Assembly (NCBI GenBank): GCA_964523975.1
Contig: CAZGBM010000001.1
Coordinates: 6,116-70,115 of the forward strand
DNA from: an uncultured bacterium
GTDB lineage: Bacteria > Hydrothermota > UBA3072
DNA length: 64,000 nt
Direction of reading: 5' to 3'
Shown: positions 11-58,600 of the stretch, piece by piece
Numbering within the stretch: the stretch's first letter is position 1
How the letters are laid out: the number at the start of each line of letters is the position of its first letter
Program-made: the position numbers and the translations under genes
Notes under the pieces: generated by a model
What the model saw: only the letters and a program-made list of their open reading frames with translations
The model's database searches: none
What the model was told of the DNA's origin: nothing

Positions 11-2167
11 TTACATTTCTTTATTCTTGCACTGGAGGCAGTAAATATAATTTTGTCTCGCATTAAATTTTTCCACCATAAAGGGAGCGCCACATTTGGA
101 ACATTCTTCGGCAACAGGCTTGTCCCATAAAACGTTATCACAATCCTCCCGGGAACAGGGATAAAAAAGCCTGCCTTTTTTAGATTTTCTTTCTACGAAT
201 TCTCCTTTACCGCACTTGGGACATTTAACGCCCGTAGAAATAGAAGCACTCCAATCGCAATTCGGATAATTGGCACAGGCTTTGAATCTCCCGAACTTTC
301 CCTGCCTCAATATTACCTTCCCGCCGCATTTGGGACATTTCTCATCGAGAATATCGTCAGCGTGAGGCTCGATATAACCTTCACAACTATCGGGATAACC
401 AGAACAGGCAATAAACTTTCCGTAACGTCCCCATTTAACCACCAAATTCCTGCCGCATTTCGGACATTTTTTATCGGTTTTTTCGCTGATGCTATCTCTA
501 ATCTCGGGGAGTTTTTCTTCAACCGAAGCCACGGAATCTTTAAAGGAATCATAGAATTTTCCAACTGATTGTTGCCAGTCTTCCTTACCTTCTTCTATTC
601 TATCCAGAGTCTCTTCCATTTTGGAAGTAAAACCACAATTAATTATCGTGGAACCGAAATTAGAAACCAAAACCTTATTGACAATTTTGCCAATTTCTTC
701 CGGCACAAGAAATCCTTTGATTTTCTTTATGTAATTTCTTATCAAGAGAGTCGACATAGTAGGAGCATAAGTGCTGGGTCTCCCTATACCTAATTTTTCC
801 ATTTCCCTGACCATCGTTGCTTCGGAATATCTTGCCGGAGGCTCCGTCGTCTTTTTTTCATCCTGGAGTTTAGCAAGCCGAACCGAATCCCCTATCTCCA
901 TCAAAGGTATTTCCGCCTGTTCTTTCGGAGGAGAAAGAACTTTATAAAAACCTTCGAATTTCAAACCCTTTGAAGAACCCTTGAATTCATAGGGAGAACT
1001 TTCGACAGTAACTCTGCGAGTATCGAAAACCGCTGGTGTAAACTGGCTCGCCAGGGCTCTTTCCCAGACGAGTTTATAAATTTTATATTCGTCAGGAGTC
1101 AAATATTCCTTGATTGAATCCGGTATCTTATTTATATCGGTTGGTCTAATTGCCTCATGTGCTTCCTGTGCAGTTTTCTTCGATTTGAATATGTTGGGTT
1201 TCGAAGGAAGATAAGCATCTCCATATTTATCTTTAATAAACTGCCTCATACTTTCTTCCGCATCTTTAGAAATCCTGAAGGAATCCGTCCTCATATAAGT
1301 AATAAGACCCATAGTTCCTTCCGGAAGTGCAATACCTTCGTATAGTTTCTGGGCTACAAACATCGTTTTCTTTATAGCAAATCCGTAACTATTGGAAGCA
1401 CCTCTTTGCAGAGTACTCGTTATCAAAGGAGGAAAAGGAGATTGCCTGGTATCTTCTCTTTTAAACTCTTTGATTTTAAATTCGGCATTTTTCAAATCTT
1501 TTTTTATTTTTTCCATTTGCTCCGGACTTAAAACCTTCGCCTTTTTCCCATCAATCTTTTCAAGAAAAGCCTCGAATTCTCCATTGGGATGAATAAAATT
1601 CCCGTCAAACACCCAGTAATCCTGCGGAATAAATTTGGCTATTTCTTCTTCCCTTTCGCAGATAAGACGAAGAACCACGCTCTGAACCCTCCCCGCAGAT
1701 AAGCCTTTCCTAATGGCTTTCCAGAGTAAAGGACTGATTTTATATCCTACCAGCCGGTCCAGAATCCTTCTTGTCCTCTGAGACATAACTTTATTCATAT
1801 CTATATCGCCTGGTTCTTCAATACCTTTAGTTATGCCGTTTTTGGTCATTTCGAAGAATAAAACTCTTTTGGGCGCAACCGGAAGTTCTTCCGCAAGGTG
1901 ATAGGCAATAGCCTCTCCTTCCCTGTCCGGGTCGGTTGCGATGAAAACTCTATCGCTTTTCTTGCTTTCCTTTACTATCTGTTTAACAATTTTACTTTTT
2001 CCTTTTATTATTTTATAATCCGGCTTGAATCCATTATCGATATCTATACCCATCTTACTCTTGGGAAGATCCTTGATATGACCCATCGTTGCCATAACTT
2101 TTGTTTTCTTTAGATAATTTGTTATTGTTCCGGCTTTTGCCGGAGATTCAACAATTATTAAATCCAT
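11..2167 (-). CDS. topA: DNA topoisomerase I with C-terminal CxxC zinc-ribbon repeats
   Basis: 718 aa; TOPRIM N-terminus (MDLIIVESPAKA...), Topo IA core, and several C-terminal CPKCG...C zinc fingers. Confidence 0.9.
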   Translation of the reverse strand: MDLIIVESPAKAGTITNYLKKTKVMATMGHIKDLPKSKMGIDIDNGFKPDYKIIKGKSKIVKQIVKESKKSDRVFIATDPDREGEAIAYHLAEELPVAPKRVLFFEMTKNGITKGIEEPGDIDMNKVMSQRTRRILDRLVGYKISPLLWKAIRKGLSAGRVQSVVLRLICEREEEIAKFIPQDYWVFDGNFIHPNGEFEAFLEKIDGKKAKVLSPEQMEKIKKDLKNAEFKIKEFKREDTRQSPFPPLITSTLQRGASNSYGFAIKKTMFVAQKLYEGIALPEGTMGLITYMRTDSFRISKDAEESMRQFIKDKYGDAYLPSKPNIFKSKKTAQEAHEAIRPTDINKIPDSIKEYLTPDEYKIYKLVWERALASQFTPAVFDTRRVTVESSPYEFKGSSKGLKFEGFYKVLSPPKEQAEIPLMEIGDSVRLAKLQDEKKTTEPPARYSEATMVREMEKLGIGRPSTYAPTMSTLLIRNYIKKIKGFLVPEEIGKIVNKVLVSNFGSTIINCGFTSKMEETLDRIEEGKEDWQQSVGKFYDSFKDSVASVEEKLPEIRDSISEKTDKKCPKCGRNLVVKWGRYGKFIACSGYPDSCEGYIEPHADDILDEKCPKCGGKVILRQGKFGRFKACANYPNCDWSASISTGVKCPKCGKGEFVERKSKKGRLFYPCSREDCDNVLWDKPVAEECSKCGAPFMVEKFNARQNYIYCLQCKNKEM

Positions 2168-2239
2168 AACATTACTTCCGTCATTATATTTTTAACCAGT
2201 AAACTTTTTTAAACATATTACATTTAGTCTCGTTTTTAT

Positions 2240-2505
2240 AGTAAATAAAATATCAAAATTTAAAAAGCAAAATGACAAATAAAAATGCAAAATTATCTTT
2301 AAATCCCCACCCAAAGCAACCCATTTTTTAACAACAAATTGCACAAATTTCACGAATAATTTTTTTTGTTTTTTCAACTCGAAACTCGCAACCCGAAACA
2401 ACAGTTAATATTTGTGTTATTCGTGTGATTCGTTGTTTCTATTTTTAATTCATTTTTGAATTTTAATCTGTCATTTTCCATTTTGATATTTGATTTTTGC
2501 ACTCC
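2240..2505. mobile_element. MITE-like internally deleted copy of the IVS-like element (two inverted arms plus internal modules)
   Basis: Arm 2243-2297 and inverted arm 2447-2502. Only an 11-codon remnant (MENDRLKFKNE...) of the four-helix-bundle ORF remains. The interior carries the shared modules cacccattttttaacaacaaattgcacaaatttcac and attcgtgtgattcgttgtttct. Confidence 0.55.
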
Positions 2506-2529
2506 AATAATTTAACCCTCCAAAATTCC

Positions 2530-3558
2530 TTAGTGTCTTCGTGTCTTAGTGGCTGTACCTTTATTTAAAAATTTAATCAGTTCTTTCATATCATCATAAA
2601 GCGGCGCGGTAAAAATCATCTTCTTTTTCTTCACAGGATGAGTAAATTCGATTAATGCGGCATGAAGCGCCTGCCTATCTATAATCCCCATTATCTTATC
2701 GAAAGTATCTTTATAGTCAAGCCCTATTTCCCTCAAAATTATTTTATCTCTGCCTCCATAATCCGGGTCACCAATCACAGGGTAACCAAAATGCGAAAGA
2801 TGAACTCTGATTTGATGTGTCCTTCCCGTTTCCAGCATAACTTTTAGTATAGAAGCAAACCCATACGAATGTAGAACTTCAAATCGCGTAAGCGAGTCGC
2901 GTGAGTTCAACGGGGTAACCGCCATAAGCTTTCTGTCAAAAGAATTCCTCCCTATAGGTGAACTTATCTCGCCCTCTTTCATCGGAGGCGTTCCCCAGAC
3001 CACAGCCAGGTAAATTTTCCTAACTTGCCTTTTCTGAAATTGGCTGGCAATCTTAGAATGAACCCTTTCGGTTTTCGCAAACACTATAACCCCCGTGGTA
3101 TCCTCATCAAGTCTATGTATAACTCCGGGTCTTGCAAGACTCGAACCTTCCGCAAGAGTAGAACAATGATGTAAAAGTGCGTTAACGAGCGTACCGTCGG
3201 AATTCCCTTTCGCGGGATGTACGACTATGCCTTTTTGTTTATTTAAAACGATTATATCCTTATCTTCATATAAAATCGAGATCGGTATTTCCTGAGGCTT
3301 TATCTCAAAAGGCACAACCGCCTCATAGACCGCTTCAATTACATCTCCCCTCTTTACCTTGTAGGACGGTTTGGAACTTTCACCATTTACAAGGATTTCT
3401 CTATCTTTTATTTTTTTCTTTATATTACTTCTACTAAAAGGAAGACTGGTTTTAGACAAGTATGTGTCAAGTCTTATATTTTCGCTTCTGACTTCTTCCC
3501 GCCATGTCTTGGTAACACCAGAATCGCCGTTTTTATTATTTTCCATAGAATCTACCAA
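2530..3558 (-). CDS. rluD: 23S rRNA pseudouridine synthase, RluA/RluD family with N-terminal S4 domain
   Basis: 342 aa; S4-like region followed by the HRLDEDTTGVIVFAKT catalytic motif. Confidence 0.85.
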   Translation of the reverse strand: MVDSMENNKNGDSGVTKTWREEVRSENIRLDTYLSKTSLPFSRSNIKKKIKDREILVNGESSKPSYKVKRGDVIEAVYEAVVPFEIKPQEIPISILYEDKDIIVLNKQKGIVVHPAKGNSDGTLVNALLHHCSTLAEGSSLARPGVIHRLDEDTTGVIVFAKTERVHSKIASQFQKRQVRKIYLAVVWGTPPMKEGEISSPIGRNSFDRKLMAVTPLNSRDSLTRFEVLHSYGFASILKVMLETGRTHQIRVHLSHFGYPVIGDPDYGGRDKIILREIGLDYKDTFDKIMGIIDRQALHAALIEFTHPVKKKKMIFTAPLYDDMKELIKFLNKGTATKTRRH

Positions 3559-3595
3559 AGATATTTAAACAATTGACTTAATTCCATAGAATATG

Positions 3596-3815
3596 AAATA
3601 TTAAAAATTAAAAAGCAAAATGACAAATTAAAATGCAAAAACTAAAAATAAAAGGACGCAGTTGCTCGCAGATAAAAAAAGATTTTTGATTTGTTACTTT
3701 TCCCAAGAACCAACTACTAACTAATAATATATGATTCGTTATTTCTTTGCTTTTTGAATCATTTTTGAATTTTGATTTGTATTTTTCCATTTTGATATTT
3801 GATTTTTACATTTTT
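3596..3815. mobile_element. MITE-like internally deleted copy of the IVS-like element
   Basis: Arm 3596-3650 and inverted arm 3752-3812. The internal 60-aa ORF (3608-3790, minus) starts MEKYKSKFKN like the intact gene and then degenerates. Confidence 0.55.
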
Positions 3816-3879
3816 ACGGATTTGTATTTCCAAGCTGTTTATTTATTACTGCTTGACCCTTCTTTAAATAGCTCAAACT

Positions 3880-4593
3880 TCACTTTACTCCGAGCGCTTC
3901 TTTTTGCCTGGCAATAAGATTTTTTATTCCTTCTCTACCGATTTCAATCAATTTGTCAAGTTCTTCTTTCCTGAAAGGTCTTCTTTCCGCAGTACCCTGA
4001 ACTTCGATTACCCCTCCTTCTTCGTCCATCACGAGATTAATATCGGCATCGGCACTAGAATCCTCTTCGAAATTAAGGTCAAGGAAAATCTCATCATTAA
4101 TAATACCTCCTGAAACAGCCGCAACCCAGCGTTTTAAAGGAACTTTTCTAATCTCTTTCATAGCAACCATCTGGCGAAGAAGCTCATAGACCGATACTAC
4201 TCCAGCAGTTATTGACGCCGCCCTTGTGCCTCCATCTGCCTGAATAACATCACAATCCACAATAATGGTTTTCTCGCCTAATAAATCCATATCGAACGCC
4301 TGTCTTACGGAACGGCCTATCAATCTCTGAATCTCATAGATTCTACCGGATAAGCCATCCCTTTCTCTGTTTTGTCTTGAGTTACAGCTTTTGGGTAACA
4401 TACCGTATTGCGCCGTTATCCAGCCCTGCCCAAAACCTTTAAGAAAAGAAGGTACCGAATCGTTAATAGTCGAGGAAACAAGAACAATCGTATTTCCCTG
4501 TTCTATCAAGACCGAAGCCGGAACCAGCTTAAGATAATTAACCTGTATTTCTACCGGACGTATTTTATTCTTTTCTCTTCTCTTCCTGGACAT
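3880..4593 (-). CDS. rph: Ribonuclease PH
   Basis: 237 aa; RPVEIQVNYLK...GSVLIEQGNT...IQADGGTR motifs typical of RNase PH. Confidence 0.9.
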   Translation of the reverse strand: MSRKRREKNKIRPVEIQVNYLKLVPASVLIEQGNTIVLVSSTINDSVPSFLKGFGQGWITAQYGMLPKSCNSRQNRERDGLSGRIYEIQRLIGRSVRQAFDMDLLGEKTIIVDCDVIQADGGTRAASITAGVVSVYELLRQMVAMKEIRKVPLKRWVAAVSGGIINDEIFLDLNFEEDSSADADINLVMDEEGGVIEVQGTAERRPFRKEELDKLIEIGREGIKNLIARQKEALGVK

Positions 4594-13142: not shown

Positions 13143-13189
13143 ACAATTTAGTATATTCTTTTTACTCCTTTGAGCAAGGGGGATGAAGA

Positions 13190-13400
13190 AAATCAAATAT
13201 CAAAAATCAAAATGACAAATAAAAATGTAAAATTATAAATCAAAACAAAAAAAGAGAAACAACGAATCACACAAATAGCACGAATAAAAACAAAAAAATT
13301 CTATTTTTTGTAAAAAATAACTATCGTTAATTCATTTGTGTAATTTGTGCTATTTGTTGTTAAAATAGGGGATGTTGGGGGATAAACAGAGAAATCTTTG
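13190..13400. repeat. Solo arm plus internal modules of the IVS-like repeat family
   Basis: Arm at 13190-13250; agaaacaacgaatcacacaaatagcacgaat and gtgtaatttgtgctatttgttgttaaaatagggg modules match the element at 2240-2505 in reverse orientation. Confidence 0.55.
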
Positions 13401-13419
13401 TGTTCTTTGTGGTTATAAC

Positions 13420-14481: not shown

Positions 14482-14699
14482 ATAACCTCCTGCTTTACAG
14501 TATTACCAATCAACTTTTTGTTCTTTTGCAAAAAAATATCTCATTTAGTTCTACCTTCCTTTCACGGTAAATAAAATATCAAAATTTAAAAAGCAAAATG
14601 ACAAATGAAAATGCAAAATTATCTCCTACCTTTCAGCGTTAAAACACTTGAAGCAAAAATTTTACTGATTTCATCCAATTCTCTTAAGAACCAACCAAC

Positions 14700-14990
14700 T
14701 TATTCTGGCATGGCTCTTTTAATATCTCCAAGCAGATTAATCCATAGTTTACTTTCATTAGTAGATTTAAGAGAATAATTGAAATAATTTGTAAAATCTC
14801 TCTTACTGCTTGCAGATTGACCTTCAACATAATTACCTAAGATACTTGTACCACTGCAAAGCAATTGATCTCCAAGTCTTTTAGACACATTATCTTTAGG
14901 TAAACCATCTAAAAACTCAATAAGCTTCAGGACAAAGTTGTACAACCTTTTTTTGTATTCATTTTTGAACTTTGATTTGTCATTTTCCAT
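14700..14990 (-). CDS. Four-helix-bundle protein (23S rRNA intervening-sequence protein family)
   Basis: 96 aa; family-typical length and composition; its start codon and first ~11 codons lie inside the dispersed 'arm' repeat. Confidence 0.65.
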   Translation of the reverse strand: MENDKSKFKNEYKKRLYNFVLKLIEFLDGLPKDNVSKRLGDQLLCSGTSILGNYVEGQSASSKRDFTNYFNYSLKSTNESKLWINLLGDIKRAMPE

Positions 14991-15035
14991 TTTGATATTT
15001 AATCTTTACATTTTAGCGGCTTTGCCACTTTATCA

Positions 15036-17788: not shown

Positions 17789-18096
17789 TTTTTTAACCCA
17801 CCTTTTATGTTTTTTACGTTATAAAAAAATAAACTATCCGATTATATTTTAATTTTTTTATTATAACAACGAATAATATTATAGCAAGAGAAAAAATTCT
17901 TTTTACTAGCCTGAGAATTTTAACCACAAAGTTATCAAAGAACCATAAAATGATAATGGTAAAGTGAGATATCAGATACCGGGTACCGGATACCAGAAAT
18001 TAGTTAGAAGGTTATCGGTCAATATATCAGTAAATCAGTGAATCGGTAAATTAGTAATAAAAAACAGCTACAGTATCTACATGTCCTACATGTAAA

Positions 18097-18335
18097 AATG
18101 GTGTGTGGGTTGGATTTTAAACCGCAAAATATCCTGTTTATCTTGTTAATCCCGTCTGATTGATTCTTCGAATCGGTTAAATAGTTGAATTGTCGAATGG
18201 TTGAATAGTAGCAACAAAAATTTTTTTATCCGTGACCATCCGTGTTAATCCGTGGCTAATTTCGGGGTTGTGGGTTGGGTTTTAAAGAACAAAAAATCTT
18301 GTGTTAATCTTGTGAAATCTCGTGATTAATTTTCC
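18097..18335. repeat. G-rich modular repeat region in the divergent intergenic region (two blocks)
   Basis: gtgtgtgggttggattttaaaccgcaaaatatcctgtttatcttgttaatcc and ccgtgttaatccgtggctaa...ggttgtgggttgggttttaaagaacaaaaaatcttgtgttaatcttgtg. Confidence 0.55.
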
Positions 18336-18337
18336 CC

Positions 18338-18365
18338 TTGACATCATACAAATATCATATATAAT
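18338..18365 (+). promoter_or_regulatory. Sigma70-type promoter TTGACA-16-TATAAT upstream of the RHH/PIN pair
   Basis: ccTTGACAtcatacaaatatcataTATAATatt; GGAGG at 18387-18391; TTG start at 18398. Confidence 0.5.
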
Positions 18366-18397
18366 ATTAATACATAAACTGTATATAGGAGGCAAAA

Positions 18398-18637
18398 TTG
18401 AAGAGTCAGGCTGTAAATATTTCGTTTAAAAAGGATTTACTAAAGAAGATTGATGACATCGCTAAAGAAGAATCCCGTACCAGGTCTGAACTGGTACGTG
18501 AAGCGGCAAGAATTTACATTGAGAGAAAGGAGGAATGGAGTAAGATTTTTTCTTACGGGGATATTCTTACTCGAGAAAAGCAACTCTCCGAAGAAGACTT
18601 GAAGAAAGAAATAGAAACTTACAGAAAAGAGAAGTAA
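18398..18637 (+). CDS. Ribbon-helix-helix (CopG/VapB-like) antitoxin, TTG start
   Basis: 79 aa; N-terminal RHH pattern (SFKKDLLKKIDDIAKEESRTRSELVREAARIYI); 1-nt gap to the PIN gene. Confidence 0.7.
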   Translation: MKSQAVNISFKKDLLKKIDDIAKEESRTRSELVREAARIYIERKEEWSKIFSYGDILTREKQLSEEDLKKEIETYRKEK

Positions 18638-18638
18638 T

Positions 18639-19043
18639 TTGTTCAAAGTTGTTTTTGACACCAATGTTTTAATTTCCGCCATTCTATTTGGTGGTTATCC
18701 CAGAAAATGTTTCGAGCTTGTAATTGAAGGGAAAATAGAATTATATATTTCCGAAGAAATCATAGGTGAATTTGAGGGAGTTTTAAAACGAGAAAAATTT
18801 GGCGTCGCCAAAGAAAATTTGCATTATATAGTTTCTTCTCTTAATTCATTTGCAAATTTCGTAAAACCTGAAACAAAATTAAATATAGTAAAAAAAGACC
18901 CCGAAGACAATAAATTTGTTGAATGTGCAATAGCAGCAGAAGCTGATTTTATCATATCCGGAGATACTCATTTGCTCGAGCTTTCCAAAATTCGAAAAAT
19001 AAAGATATTAAATCCAGCCGATTTTTTAAAGCATTATTTTTAA
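18639..19043 (+). CDS. PIN-domain toxin (VapC-like)
   Basis: 134 aa; VVFDTNVLISAILFGG...CAIAAEADFIISGDTHLL, acidic residues characteristic of the PIN fold. Confidence 0.75.
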   Translation: MFKVVFDTNVLISAILFGGYPRKCFELVIEGKIELYISEEIIGEFEGVLKREKFGVAKENLHYIVSSLNSFANFVKPETKLNIVKKDPEDNKFVECAIAAEADFIISGDTHLLELSKIRKIKILNPADFLKHYF

Positions 19044-19049
19044 CTAAAG

Positions 19050-19262
19050 TGATTTTAGATGTTAGGAAGTTAGGAGGCTAAAACAGAAAATAAAAGATTG
19101 GGCTTAGTTGAGCTTTGTGCTCTCTGTGCCTCCGCGGTTATGAGAATTTTTTTTATTAGTGTGTATCCGTGTTAATCCGTGGCTAACTCAGTGGTTTTGG
19201 GTTGGGTTTCGAATAACAAGAAAATCCTTTTTAATCTGCGTCTATCTGTGTACGATTCTTTT
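19050..19262. repeat. G-rich modular repeat region
   Basis: gttaggaagttaggagg, ctttgtgctctctgtgcctccgcgg and gtgtatccgtgttaatccgtggctaactcagtggttttgggttgggtttcgaataacaag modules shared with other loci. Confidence 0.55.
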
Positions 19263-19265
19263 TAA

Positions 19266-19338
19266 ATTTTGCATTTTTATTTGTCATTTTGCTTTTTGAT
19301 ATTTGATTTTTACTTTTAAGCGGCTTTGCCGCTTATCT
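19266..19338. repeat. Solo arm of the IVS-like family plus GC hairpin aagcggctttgccgctt
   Basis: tttgtcattttgctttttgatatttgatttttac then a 7-bp stem/3-nt loop hairpin whose 3' end overlaps the TAA stop of the 782-aa gene. Confidence 0.55.
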
Positions 19339-24187: not shown

Positions 24188-24295
24188 TTACTCCTCCTTT
24201 ATATTAATATTTATAAAAATATTAGACAGGACTCCTCCCCATTCGTTCCATAAAAAATTAAGTTTTCCCACTTTTCTTTTAAAGTATAGAGATTT

Positions 24296-24480
24296 TAGCA
24301 CGTTATGTCAAGAAGTTAAAAGTCGCCCCCCCGCTTACCGCTTACGGCTAACAGCAGGAAAAAAATCACATGTAGGAAATGTAGGGATTTTATTTTTTGT
24401 TTTTAAGCAACACAATAAATCTTTTTTTAATCCGTGTTTATCTGTGTTCATCCGTGGCTATTTCCTTTTTATCTATTCGT
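24296..24480. repeat. Composite repeat region (modules shared with both repeat families)
   Basis: taatccgtgtttatctgtgttcatccgtggcta. The block ttcgtgctattcgcctacctcataaggaagaatgactgtatcggggtg matches 56340-56390. acatgtaggaaatgtaggg matches 18070-18095 in reverse complement. Confidence 0.5.
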
Positions 24481-24788
24481 GCTATTCGCCTACCTCATAA
24501 GGAAGAATGACTGTATCGGGGTGTGTTAAACATAGCTCTTTGCCTTTAGACTTTGGCTCTTGGCCGAAAAAATAAATAAAAAATTTAGTGTATTTTGTTT
24601 GTTTAAAGCAAAAACCACAAATCTTTAGAAAAACAACAGAATTTTAAAAATAATCATCTATCTTCTCCTCGGAATGACCAAAAACACTCTTAATGCCCCT
24701 CATTGAGCCAGCAGCAAGGTACATAAGTTCATCTATAAAATAATTGTTATTTCTAAAAGCTAAAGGCAAAAAGCTAAAAGCTATTTAA

Positions 24789-25853
24789 TTACGAAAGTTT
24801 TTTCTTGAAAGCCGATATACTTAAAAACAAAAAAGTAAAGCCAAAGCAAAAGAGGATAACAGTCTCTCTCCACAGAATTTTTAAACCCACTCCTTTTAAA
24901 AATATACTTCTTAGAATTATTATATAGTACTTAACAGGTACGATATAAGTCAATTTTTGTATTACGGGCGGCATGTTTTCTATAGGAAACATAAATCCCG
25001 ACAGCATAATGTTTGGAAGCATTACCATAAATGCCGTCATAACAGCCTGCTGCTGAGTTTTTGAGGTTATAGATATAAAAATTCCAAGCGAAATCGTGGT
25101 AAGTATAAAAGGGAATGTCGTAAATACAAGAAATCCGAAATTTCCTTTAAAAGGCGTTTTAAAAATAAAAATACCCGCTGCAACCACCAAAAAAAGGTCA
25201 AATAAACCTATTATCATAAAAGGTAGTAGCTTACCCAGTATTACCTCCGAAGACGAAAGAGGTGTAACAAATATATGTTCAATAGTACCGATTTCTTTCT
25301 CTTTTACCAATATGGCCGACGCAAGTACCATGGTAATTATAAGTAGTACCAGTCCCGTAACGCCGGGAACCATAAAATTAACCGTCTTTAATTCAGGATT
25401 AAAAAGGACTTTGAATACCGGAACAATTACCGGAGTTTCTATCGAAGTATTACGCTTTTCGGCAAGTATCTTTTCGAAATATCCTTCAATCAATGCGGCG
25501 GTGTTATTATCGGAACCATCAATCACGATATTAGTTTGATTTTTGCCTAATATAAGCCCCGCCTTCACTCTACCACGCAAAATCGCATTTTCGACTTCGT
25601 ACATGCTGTGAACATTTTCTTTTATTACAAAATAATTGCTGGACACAAGAGAAAGCAATATTTCATTTGAGTAACTGTCTTGCTTCTCTTTCATAATTGC
25701 TATAGGGATTTCTTTTATGTCAAGACTGACCGCATAGCCGAAGAGGAAAAGCTGAATCACCGGAGCAAAAATTACCAGTGGAAACAATCTCCTGTCTCTC
25801 CTTATTTGAATAAACTCTTTTTTTAACATCGCAATCAGGTGAATTCTTTTCAT
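24789..25853 (-). CDS. ABC-2 family transporter permease
   Basis: 354 aa; N-terminal TM, large extracytoplasmic loop, five C-terminal TM helices. Confidence 0.75.
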   Translation of the reverse strand: MKRIHLIAMLKKEFIQIRRDRRLFPLVIFAPVIQLFLFGYAVSLDIKEIPIAIMKEKQDSYSNEILLSLVSSNYFVIKENVHSMYEVENAILRGRVKAGLILGKNQTNIVIDGSDNNTAALIEGYFEKILAEKRNTSIETPVIVPVFKVLFNPELKTVNFMVPGVTGLVLLIITMVLASAILVKEKEIGTIEHIFVTPLSSSEVILGKLLPFMIIGLFDLFLVVAAGIFIFKTPFKGNFGFLVFTTFPFILTTISLGIFISITSKTQQQAVMTAFMVMLPNIMLSGFMFPIENMPPVIQKLTYIVPVKYYIIILRSIFLKGVGLKILWRETVILFCFGFTFLFLSISAFKKKLS

Positions 25854-48468: not shown

Positions 48469-48690
48469 TTAACTGAAATTTAACCACGAGATTACACAAG
48501 ATTAACACCAGATTTTTTTGTTGTTTAAAACCCACCCCCATCCCAAATATTTCGACAGGATTAACAAGATAAACAGGATATATTTTTTTTATTTTAACCC
48601 TCCAAACTTCCCAACCCCTAACTTCCTAACTGATATTTCACACAGAGTCCACAGAGAAAAAAAACAATATTTTTTGTTTTTATTGACTCG
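48469..48690. repeat. G-rich modular repeat region (reverse orientation)
   Basis: The reverse complement reads gggatgggggtgggttttaaacaacaaaaaaatctggtgttaatcttgtg and cagttaggaagttaggggttggg, matching loci at 18100-18335 and 19050-19260. Confidence 0.55.
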
Positions 48691-55956: not shown

Positions 55957-56079
55957 AATTAAGGAGGTTTAAAAGTATCAGAGTGAAAAAATCAATTATA
56001 TTACCCAAAACTAAAAGAAACGACCTTTAAACAAGGAGAGAGAAAGAAGAAAGAAGGCAAATCGAGAGAATTGTTTTAA

Positions 56080-56292
56080 ATGAAAAAGAAAACTAAAGAA
56101 TTAGAGTATTATTTTAATCCCTTGGTCTTATACTTAAACGATTTGGAAAAAATTGAAGAGTTCTTCAAAGAAGCTGGTTGCAATGTAAAAATTGAAACCG
56201 AAAATTTTGTCCTCGGGAATATAAAAGAATTAAAAGAGCAACTAGTAGATAATGTTTTTAATGGTTGGACGGTTAGCCAGTGTGTCAGTTAA
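56080..56292 (+). CDS. Hypothetical small protein
   Basis: 70 aa ORF followed by an IVS-like arm; no recognisable motif. Confidence 0.35.
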   Translation: MKKKTKELEYYFNPLVLYLNDLEKIEEFFKEAGCNVKIETENFVLGNIKELKEQLVDNVFNGWTVSQCVS

Positions 56293-56415
56293 TCATTTAG
56301 TCTGTTGGCCTGTAGAAAAACTACACCAATAAATTTTGATTCGTGTTATTCGCCTGCCCCGTAAAGAAGAATGAGTGTATCGGGGTGCAATTCGTTGTTT
56401 CTTCGTTTCTTTGAA

Positions 56416-56488
56416 TTCCTTTTTGGATTCTGATATATCATTTTACATTTTGATATTTGATTTTTACTTTCTAGCGGCTCTGCCGCTT
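56416..56488. repeat. Solo arm plus hairpin of the IVS-like family
   Basis: ttttggattctgatatatcattttacattttgatatttgatttttac followed by tagcggctctgccgctta. Confidence 0.55.
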
Positions 56489-56494
56489 ACCCGC

Positions 56495-56523
56495 TTGACA
56501 TTCCCCCGCTTTCAGCATATACT
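56495..56523 (+). promoter_or_regulatory. Sigma70-type promoter TTGACA-17-TATACT
   Basis: cTTGACAttcccccgctttcagcaTATACTataaatacAGGAGGtaaaaATG upstream of the 99-aa ORF. Confidence 0.45.
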
Positions 56524-56542
56524 ATAAATACAGGAGGTAAAA

Positions 56543-56842
56543 ATGGAACAATCAAAAATCTCAATGAAATTTTATAAGGACGCAGATATGGGAAACCAAA
56601 CTCAAGGGGCGTATTGGTTAAGTTTATATAAAAACGGCAAAAACATTAGTAACGAACCTTTTGTTAAACAAGACCTTGCACAATTGAAGTCTATTGCTCA
56701 AAAGAAAGGAGATTCAGGACACATTGAACTACACAAGTGGTTAAAAAATAACCGCCCTAGATTTTTTGAAAAATCCATTACAGATTCCGATCCGGATAGG
56801 ATTGTTGTAGAAATCCTTAAATTTTTAAAAGAAATTTTATAA
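56543..56842 (+). CDS. Hypothetical small protein
   Basis: 99 aa ORF with strong RBS AGGAGG at 56533-56538; no recognisable motif. Confidence 0.45.
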   Translation: MEQSKISMKFYKDADMGNQTQGAYWLSLYKNGKNISNEPFVKQDLAQLKSIAQKKGDSGHIELHKWLKNNRPRFFEKSITDSDPDRIVVEILKFLKEIL

Positions 56843-56911
56843 GTAGTATAAATGAATGAAAAAGCTAATCCCTATAATTCTATTTATCCTCTTCTGCACC
56901 TCTATTTTTTA

Positions 56912-56968
56912 AATTCATTTTTGAACTTTGATTTGTAATTTTACATTTTGCTATTTGATTTTTAAATT
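56912..56968. repeat. Solo arm of the IVS-like family
   Basis: ttcatttttgaactttgatttgtaattttacattttgctatttgatttttaaatttcag. Confidence 0.5.
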
Positions 56969-57083
56969 TCAGAAGTTTCCCTCTATCCAATTATAAATTG
57001 CTAATAAACGGTCGTGAATATGTAGAGTAGTATAAACTTATATTGTATTGACTTATAACCTCAATTTAATTATTATAGTATAT

Positions 57084-58280: not shown

Positions 58281-58289
58281 AAAAATTTT

Positions 58290-58497
58290 TGTTGTTTTTC
58301 ACCACACCACCCATTTTTTAACAACAAATTGCACAAATTTCACAAATAAATTTGAGAATAGTCAGTATCTGTTTTTTAAATATTCGTGCTATTCGTGTTA
58401 TTTGTTGTTTCTCTTTTTTTTAATTCCTTTTTGAATTTTGATTTGTAATTTTGCATTTTGCTATTTGATTTTTGAATTTCAGTGGCTTTGCCGTGCT
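58290..58497. repeat. Internal modules plus solo arm plus imperfect hairpin of the IVS-like family
   Basis: caccacaccacccattttttaacaacaaattgcacaaatttcac...attcgtgctattcgtgttatttgttgtttct...ttgaattttgatttgtaattttgcattttgctatttgatttttg...cagtggctttgccgtgctg. Confidence 0.55.
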
Positions 58498-58600
58498 GAG
58501 TTCTTTCTACCTTCTGTAGTTAAAGAATGCGGCAGGATACACTTTTAGGCTCTTGACAATAAATTACTTCTATTTATTTTCCATTATATATGGAGGAACA

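Follow-up and report, generated by a model that had tools for sequence, protein, structure and literature searches.

What occupies the 321-nt spacer between rph and rluD in this uncultured bacterium, and does it do anything there? The initial annotation of the window (by which we mean the whole stretch of 64,000 nucleotides analysed) had proposed a MITE-like derivative of an IVS element, in which inverted arms enclose the decaying remnant of a four-helix-bundle (4HB) gene and, if paired in RNA, might create sites cleavable by RNase III. On closer analysis that observation is partly confirmed and its interpretation partly supported. We consider it likely that the element, hereafter copy B, is a decaying, dispensable, non-coding relic of a repeat family derived from a gene cassette.

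Copy B and its interior

Copy B covers window positions 3575-3819 on the minus strand, a length of ~245 nt. Its upstream neighbour is rph, encoding RNase PH (3880-4593, minus; Pfam RNase_PH and RNase_PH_C), and its downstream neighbour is the gene for an rluD-type pseudouridine synthase (2530-3558, minus; Pfam S4 and PseudoU_synth_2), the start of which JGI places at an ATG 12 nt further in, giving a product of 338 aa. No intrinsic terminator is predicted after rph. As first described, two spacers, of 321 and 362 nt, break a chain of minus-strand genes that is otherwise tightly packed; the junctions of relatives measure 50-65 nt or overlap.

The inverted arms are present where they had been reported and, by homology within the family, extend slightly further. 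The 5' arm, an array of A-rich units of ~7 nt, occupies 3750-3819 (minus; nhmmer E 2.2e-13 against the 5'-arm profile), and the 3' arm, a T-rich array complementary to it, occupies 3575-3643 (minus; nhmmer E 1.3e-14). The alignment of periodic arrays is ambiguous, and the arms can be paired either as 3580-3641 with 3762-3823 (62 nt, 73% complementary) or as 3602-3649 with 3761-3808 (48 nt, 75% complementary). Their duplex has a computed energy of -20.9 kcal/mol, compared with -13.8 +/- 3.0 kcal/mol for shuffled arms, of which 12 in 500 were as good; the inverted arms of copy B are not due to chance. By blastn, copy B matches copy C, the full cassette of the window described below, at 87% identity over 75 nt in the arm and at 85% over 59 nt, and a degenerate pattern for the arm and start region has five matches in the window where none is expected.

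A mechanical open reading frame of 60 aa (3608-3790, minus) runs through the element, as the list of open reading frames had indicated, and has also been called as a gene by JGI on an identical metagenome contig, without any Pfam match, PF05635 included. Nine of its first 13 residues match those of the 4HB protein, a likeness noticed from the outset, and this is because the 5' arm carries the start codon and the first 10-12 codons of that gene; in copy B the arm includes the ATG at 3788-3790 and codons 1-13 of the frame. Past codon ~13 the sequence (…aaagaaataacgaatcat…) aligns to the ACGAAT-word module of the gene-less subfamily, a remnant of which lies at 3729-3756 (minus; aligned with copies A, E, L010b, L011a and L011c) and reads ...KSKEITNH... 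in the mechanical frame. The remainder of the frame passes through repeat modules and the T-rich 3' arm. An interior module at 3644-3686 (minus; …atctgcgagcaactgcgtcc…) is homologous, in inverted orientation, to the flank of copy G, and blastn aligns positions 145-235 of copy B with window 19221-19311 (80% over 91 nt, E 5e-18).

The parent gene has left no detectable trace in this interior: nhmmer, run with --max and a profile built from 65 cassettes, found no remnant of the open reading frame in copy B even at E up to 10, its matches falling solely on the arms (profile positions 31-95 and 432-491), and blastn of copy B against copy C at a word size of 7 likewise gave matches confined to the arms. 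The orthologous copies in L004, L009, L010 and L011 read ATG-TAA, so that codon 2 is a stop, and a 4HB gene occupies the rph|rluD site in no relative. The description of the frame as a decaying gene remnant is not supported by these comparisons, by which the interior of copy B comes from a repeat module of the gene-less subfamily and not from a 4HB open reading frame, and the 60-aa frame itself is judged accidental and non-coding.

The repeat family and its parent cassette

By blastn and nhmmer, the family has at least nine loci in the 64-kb window. The sibling that had been placed between rluD and topA is there: copy A (2227-2507, minus; blastn and nhmmer) is gene-less and consists of a 5' arm, an ACGAAT hairpin, a G-rich module and a 3' arm. 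Copy C (14555-15020, minus; blastn, nhmmer and Pfam) is a full cassette, laid out as a GC hairpin, a 5' arm, a PF05635 gene (14618-14990) and a 3' arm. Three shorter copies on the minus strand were recovered with nhmmer, namely copy G (19253-19324; GC hairpin and a solitary arm), copy D (56407-56478; GC hairpin and a solitary 5' arm reading ATG-TAA) and copy D2 (56905-56975; a solitary 5' arm, again ATG-TAA). Copy F (13189-13416, plus), an arm variant with an ACGAAT hairpin, is oriented opposite to its flanking genes, and copy E (58300-58486, minus, the start being approximate), which combines a GC hairpin, a 5' arm and an ACGAAT hairpin without a 3' arm, lies between plus-strand genes; a further fragment of the family is found near 24475-24523. 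The ACGAAT-word module stands in place of the gene in copies A and E and at L010:12137-12323, L011:4606-4811 and L011:12524-12707. Among the gene-less copies of the window, A, B and G run in the direction of the neighbouring gene and F, E, D and D2 against it. Across the sampled loci, gene-less copies are essentially confined to the clade of the window, which most likely belongs to candidate division WOR-3. At most independent loci, WOR-3-type copies have TA(A/G) as their left boundary, ahead of a GCGGCAAAGCCGC hairpin, and (A)TAA as their right one, and WOR-3-type elements carry past the 3' arm a conserved tail of ~85 nt that stops just short of the ribosome-binding site of the next gene.

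The proposed descent of copy B, as a form without the gene, from an element that in full consists of a 23S_rRNA_IVP/4HB gene between inverted arms is upheld. In the complete form, a 123-aa PF05635/TIGR02436 gene is set between ~50-nt inverted arrays of AAAATNN-type heptads, with AAAATNN units ahead of and into the gene and NNATTTT units past its stop codon. The 5' arm spans from ~24 nt before the ATG to ~30 nt after it, encoding the first 10-12 residues; it starts at, or itself provides, the stop codon of the upstream gene, and the 3' arm stops just short of the next start codon. The 4HB protein (P0012) matches TIGR02436, 'four helix bundle protein', with 83 bits and PDB 2RLD with an E-value of 1e-12.

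The copy C gene (14618-14990, minus), the sole 4HB gene in the window, had been taken as an intact standard of comparison, and this has to be corrected: it has an in-frame TAA at codon 97, where its close homologues, which are 123 aa long (more than 1500 homologues exist in all), have Q, K or E. The Pfam match to PF05635 (23S_rRNA_IVP; 56.9 bits, cut-off 33.8) covers residues 12-112 and thus spans the internal stop. The truncated 96-aa product is recorded on three contigs and is therefore not a one-off assembly error. In L036, which is orthologous to the copy C locus, the 123-aa gene is intact, and the copy C gene looks like a recent nonsense mutant.

An arm-blind, protein-based scan of metagenome contigs returned 80 loci and, with other look-ups, led to 69 distinct cassettes in 49 independent flank contexts, nearly all with both arms, many of the loci being short metagenome contigs. 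Taking x as the position relative to the ATG (its A being 0) and y as the position relative to the stop codon (its first base being 1), the common ungapped pairing register of the arms is x+y=31. The arms have a period of 6.7-7 nt (self-identity 0.65 at lag 7 and 0.64 at lag 20), and their complementarity is 0.70 in the main register, 0.60-0.69 in registers ~7 nt apart and ~0.4 in between. Counted per independent context, upstream genes share the orientation of the cassette in 37 of 40 cases and downstream genes in 40 of 43 (p about 1e-8). In 18 of 37 contexts the stop codon of the upstream gene is found 20-29 nt ahead of the ATG, right where the arm starts, and the next start codon is often found 5-20 nt past the 3' arm. 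None of the 113 loci fetched contains a universal 23S motif, and viral contigs contain no relative of this 4HB gene subfamily.

A dN/dS ratio of 0.07 points to strong purifying selection on the 4HB protein. Synonymous divergence is 0.39 in the arm-encoded codons 1-11 as against 0.875 in the rest of the gene, which indicates that the arm is constrained as a nucleotide sequence. A leuC|leuD site is common to eight diverged cassettes (L021:2977-3440, L071, L078, L087, L095, L096, L099 and L106) from Sedimentisphaerales-like genomes of much higher G+C content, in which the arms are still AT-rich and periodic while the gene itself has GC-rich codons; these cassettes appear to have been inherited vertically with their arms still conserved. 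Such retention hints at a function in place, since ends needed only for a past transposition would not be expected to stay conserved. This function could be the control of the 4HB gene's own expression, an option raised by the location of the start codon within the arm, or the binding of a protein to the heptads. At L097:4370-4560, a second arm pair directly follows the stop codon of the 4HB gene, which suggests the insertion of one element into another.

The window also contains long intergenic mosaics of hairpin-prone modules (17790-19330, 24190-24790, 55960-57050 and 58281-58552). Each module is a repeated word of 7-10 nt, such as CACGGAT, ACGAAT, CCCAACCC, GTTTCGAG or CACAGAG, and these word modules recur, recombined differently, in the rph|rluD spacer of related species. 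At the 3' end of rluD, in window 2530-2560 and in relatives, the last codons (…actaagacacgaagacac…) resemble a word-repeat module, which suggests that such a module may have been absorbed into the rluD coding sequence. At 18398-19043 (plus), a ribbon-helix-helix-like small open reading frame and a PIN-like one resemble, judged by eye, a toxin-antitoxin pair, flanked by direct copies of a 'aaacccaaccca...ttagccacggattaacacggat' module. A second kind of cassette was seen in a related WOR-3 locus (L026:4813-5479), where a 125-aa PDDEXK_3 gene (PF13366) is bracketed by inverted ACAGGAT-word arrays in the same architecture as the 4HB cassette; arms of this type occur without cargo in the window at 18131-18155 (minus) and 48555-48579 (plus), two matches where 0.02 are expected.

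Turnover and copying of the gene-less elements

The gene order bactofilin-rph-rluD-topA is found in ten species-level relatives, one of them named WOR-3, with RNase PH 78-84% identical. Their rph|rluD junction holds a compact hairpin of both arms around a ~25-nt loop in L009, L010 and L011, both arms together with other modules in L004, the 3' arm alone in L003 and L006, and just the final ~20 nt of the 3' arm, with GATATT, in L007; in L005, L012 and L008 the arms are missing and other word modules are found. The 3' arm is the best-kept part of the site, persisting in 8 of 11 genomes, whereas the 5' arm is found in 5. Sister pairs differ in their arm state (L010/L012, with 93% identical proteins, L008/L009, L004/L005 and L003/L007), as paired by a rough neighbour-joining tree in which L004 and L012 are partial, and on this comparison the element at the copy B site appears to have been lost or replaced in at least four lineages; MAG assemblies can collapse or break at repeats, and contig L002 ends within the 5' arm. 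An element that is old at this junction and yet has been lost or replaced several times is, by that history, dispensable.

Sister copies vary between genomes as well. Copy A is missing at rluD|topA in seven relatives, in which 0-140 nt separate the two genes, and is unique to this genome among the eight. At parB|M23, L011 carries a gene-less copy where L010, L003, L005, L006, L007 and the window have a junction of 17-65 nt instead. Comparison of the filled site with the empty one (L011:4596-4860 and L010:4795-4921, from genomes with 90% identical proteins) shows that the insert replaces the last four codons of parB and supplies a new parB stop codon, and that 10-14 nt of the empty site are missing, which is not the pattern of a clean insertion. 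At the end of parB in L009, only a GC-hairpin-like remnant (gtgcggcgaagccat) is seen.

Site turnover among the ten relatives and the insertion polymorphisms of the sister copies make the term MITE-like fitting. Copy B is small and non-coding, its terminal inverted repeats are 73-75% complementary, and its family has been amplified and is polymorphic for presence and absence, L011 being filled where L010 is empty. The term does not extend to the machinery: no autonomous, transposase-encoding parent with the same ends was found, and Pfam identified no transposase, integrase, reverse transcriptase or RNase III among the 36 open reading frames of the window. As to a target-site duplication, none appeared at fixed offsets in 44 cassettes (k = 3-8, all offsets; no better than a permuted null), and the WOR-3-type copies have the TA(A/G) and (A)TAA bounds given above.

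In this WOR-3 clade an ACGAAT-word hairpin module has taken the place of the gene and the resulting derivative has multiplied, copy B being one of its copies. In the history that we favour, these were presumably copied as DNA, with the machinery provided in trans. Copying of this kind is consistent with the occurrence of gene-less window copies in both orientations, unlike the strictly co-oriented gene-bearing cassettes, and also with the TA(A/G) and (A)TAA bounds of the WOR-3-type ends; against it, neither a clean target duplication nor, in the window, a transposase was found, the cargo 4HB protein is not a known recombinase, the parent encodes nothing but this 123-aa protein, and the arms of vertically inherited cassettes have stayed conserved. 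Copy B would have been at rph|rluD before several of the sampled species diverged, and would later have been eroded or swapped out independently in several lineages. It would ride passively on the rph-rluD-topA transcript, its A-U-rich arms probably still able to fold back weakly, and would be dispensable, serving at most as an incidental source of a weak hairpin or a promoter-like sequence for rluD. Two findings count against reading copy B as a relic. At all four independent gene-less sites that have both arms, the element is oriented like its flanking genes, which, although the number is small, would also fit a role at the RNA level, and the rluD-adjacent 3' arm has persisted in most of the genomes compared.

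Pairing of the arms and other possible roles

The foremost alternative is that the arms form a functional intercistronic hairpin, pairing in the polycistronic transcript and being cut by RNase III or protecting RNA ends; by analogy with the arms of the 23S rRNA IVS, processing would then uncouple the rph, rluD and topA messages. We regard this as unlikely, although several observations speak for it. The architecture mirrors that of the Coxiella and Leptospira IVS (PMC4990558), the gene-bearing cassettes are co-oriented with their host operons and have arms constrained as nucleotides, and the minimum-energy folds of copies A, B and C and of the orthologues all pair arm with arm (28-46 pairs). 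The arm duplexes also beat those of shuffled arms, with z-scores of -2.4 for copy B, -4.1 for copy A (-28.9 kcal/mol) and -3.7 for copy C (-31.5 kcal/mol). When folded as whole elements, copies A (z -3.2 and -4.35) and C (z -3.6) and L010b (z -3.5) stand apart from their shuffles, but copy B (z -0.69 and -1.1) and its three orthologous hairpins, L009 (z -1.3), L010a (z +0.3) and L011b (z +0.1), fold no better than shuffled sequence. The arms do pair in the predicted folds; the stem of copy B is by the same folding models thermodynamically unremarkable. Most of its pairing comes in short runs of 4-5 A-U pairs, and little of it is lost when the register is moved by 7, 14 or 21 nt.

The comparative data point in the same direction. 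In 41 diverged cassettes, 75% of the cells pair in the register named above, as against 37-56% when the arms are slid by 1-3 columns, but exchanging partners among the cassettes gives an equal level of pairing (75.1 +/- 0.3%, with 333 of 500 shuffles as high), and the covariation score is 0.087 compared with a shuffle mean of 0.088; the pair counts were made on arm sequences joined by an artificial loop. The complementarity therefore belongs to the two conserved arrays, whose variable positions drift independently. RNAalifold on 17 WOR-3-type hairpins gives -7.2 kcal/mol and no compensatory pair. There is a mild excess of G-U pairs over A-C mismatches (139 versus 75), though a single fixed coding position accounts for 37 of these G-U cells, and the loss or replacement of the hairpin in at least four lineages likewise speaks against a function. 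Rfam gives no family at the gathering score anywhere in the window, nor does it for 2100-4000 when E is allowed to reach 1; the window has no tRNA or tmRNA genes. The comparative data lend no support to RNase III cutting, and for copy B an RNase III-cleavable stem is a weak prediction.

One could also speculate, at lower probability, that the arms may not be primarily a helix, and would instead be paired arrays of ~8 heptads bound by a ring-shaped protein, possibly the cassette's own pentameric 4HB toroid, with the 4HB and PDDEXK_3 cassettes forming one class, of which the classical rRNA IVS would be the representatives inserted in rRNA. TRAP and HutP, which recognise repeated triplets, offer a parallel. 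If true, this would define one class of small genes that lie between inverted word arrays and settle at operon stop codons, with copy B as a relic that lacks the cargo.

A slimmer chance still attaches to the idea that copy B is a regulatory carrier, its rluD-proximal 3' arm being kept as a promoter or leader for the downstream gene. The 3' arm of copy B contains a sigma-70-like TTGTCA-N17-TAATAT (3626->3598) facing rluD, a consensus that may not be that of WOR-3, and the 3' arm of copy A contains TTGTCA-N18-GATATT facing its downstream gene. The better retention of the 3' arm than of the 5' arm at the copy B site, with an outer 3' arm carrying GATATT still present in L007, would agree with such a role, as would the conserved ~85-nt tail of the WOR-3-type elements, and Correia elements can act in this way, being reported to generate promoters at their ends (PMC2649163). 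However, hexamer pairs of this kind are common in the AT-rich window (20, versus 6.7 in shuffles) and lie mostly within repeats, the arm is wholly absent in L005, L012 and L008, and in most cassettes from outside WOR-3 the arm is separated from the next start codon by just 5-20 nt, which leaves little room for a leader. That the 60-aa frame is a real small-protein gene, a diverged 4HB paralogue, is scarcely credible, for despite its ATG start, its JGI gene call and its 4HB-like N-terminus it matches no family, its likeness is limited to the arm-encoded codons, TAA is codon 2 in the orthologues and in copies D and D2, and the remaining frame is made of repeat modules and the T-rich 3' arm.

Among known systems, the closest is the S23p-bearing 23S rRNA IVS. 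In Coxiella and Leptospira, the inverted ends of the IVS form a stem that is cut by RNase III, and the S23p gene lies in the loop in sense orientation (PMC4990558). The parent cassette shares with the IVS of Leptospira, Coxiella, Xanthomonas and Brucella the cargo family PF05635/TIGR02436, the layout of complementary ends around a sense-oriented loop gene (PMC4990558) and, as a family, a sporadic distribution across phyla. The family differs in sitting between protein-coding genes (rph|rluD here, leuC|leuD and 47 other contexts elsewhere) and in having arms that are ~50-nt arrays of 7-nt repeats with ~70-75% pairing, whereas in Coxiella the 28-bp stem is paired almost perfectly. An IVS lies in helix 9, 25 or 45 of 23S rRNA; copy B instead has rph and rluD as its flanks, the window gives no Rfam rRNA match, and its loop holds no S23p/4HB gene, unlike those of copy C, where the gene is truncated, and of 69 cassettes elsewhere. 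The Avd accessory protein of diversity-generating retroelements is a distant homologue of the cargo protein (PMC10053308); the 4HB protein scores 19 bits against the Avd model NF033474, far under the cut-off of 80 bits, and the window yielded no reverse transcriptase or template/variable repeats.

As a functional analogue, the Correia element of Neisseria seems the best, a co-transcribed MITE reported to create promoters and to be a substrate of RNase III (PMC2649163). Correia elements are likewise small and non-coding, with inverted ends and many copies between genes. Their sequence is unrelated, the TA duplication was not found here, and the present family differs further in its 4HB-bearing parent and in the internal periodicity of its arms. 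REP/BIME, ERIC and BOX-type repeats are modular hairpin-formers that make up mosaic intergenic regions and can sit inside operons, and the window family resembles them in forming modular hairpin mosaics. They are not known to derive from gene cassettes or to consist of tandem 7-nt units. REPs are associated with RAYT transposases, which did not turn up in the window.

The four-helix-bundle IVS protein has been called functionally uncharacterised (PMC11270868, PMC4990558). We found nothing specific in the literature on the 4HB family outside rRNA or on intergenic repeats of WOR-3, an absence that is not proof, and no paper that presents the family as a cassette residing in operons and framed by periodic arms; the papers found discuss it solely in the contexts of rRNA or diversity-generating retroelements. 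Taken alone, copy B matters little, because it is probably a decaying relic, and the parent cassette is the more interesting object. The origin of the rRNA IVS and the role of its open reading frame bear on this same gene with its conserved periodic inverted arms, which is found here between ordinary genes in at least 49 operon contexts of uncultured lineages. For the organism itself, the repeat family accounts for a large part of the unusual intergenic mosaics of this genome.
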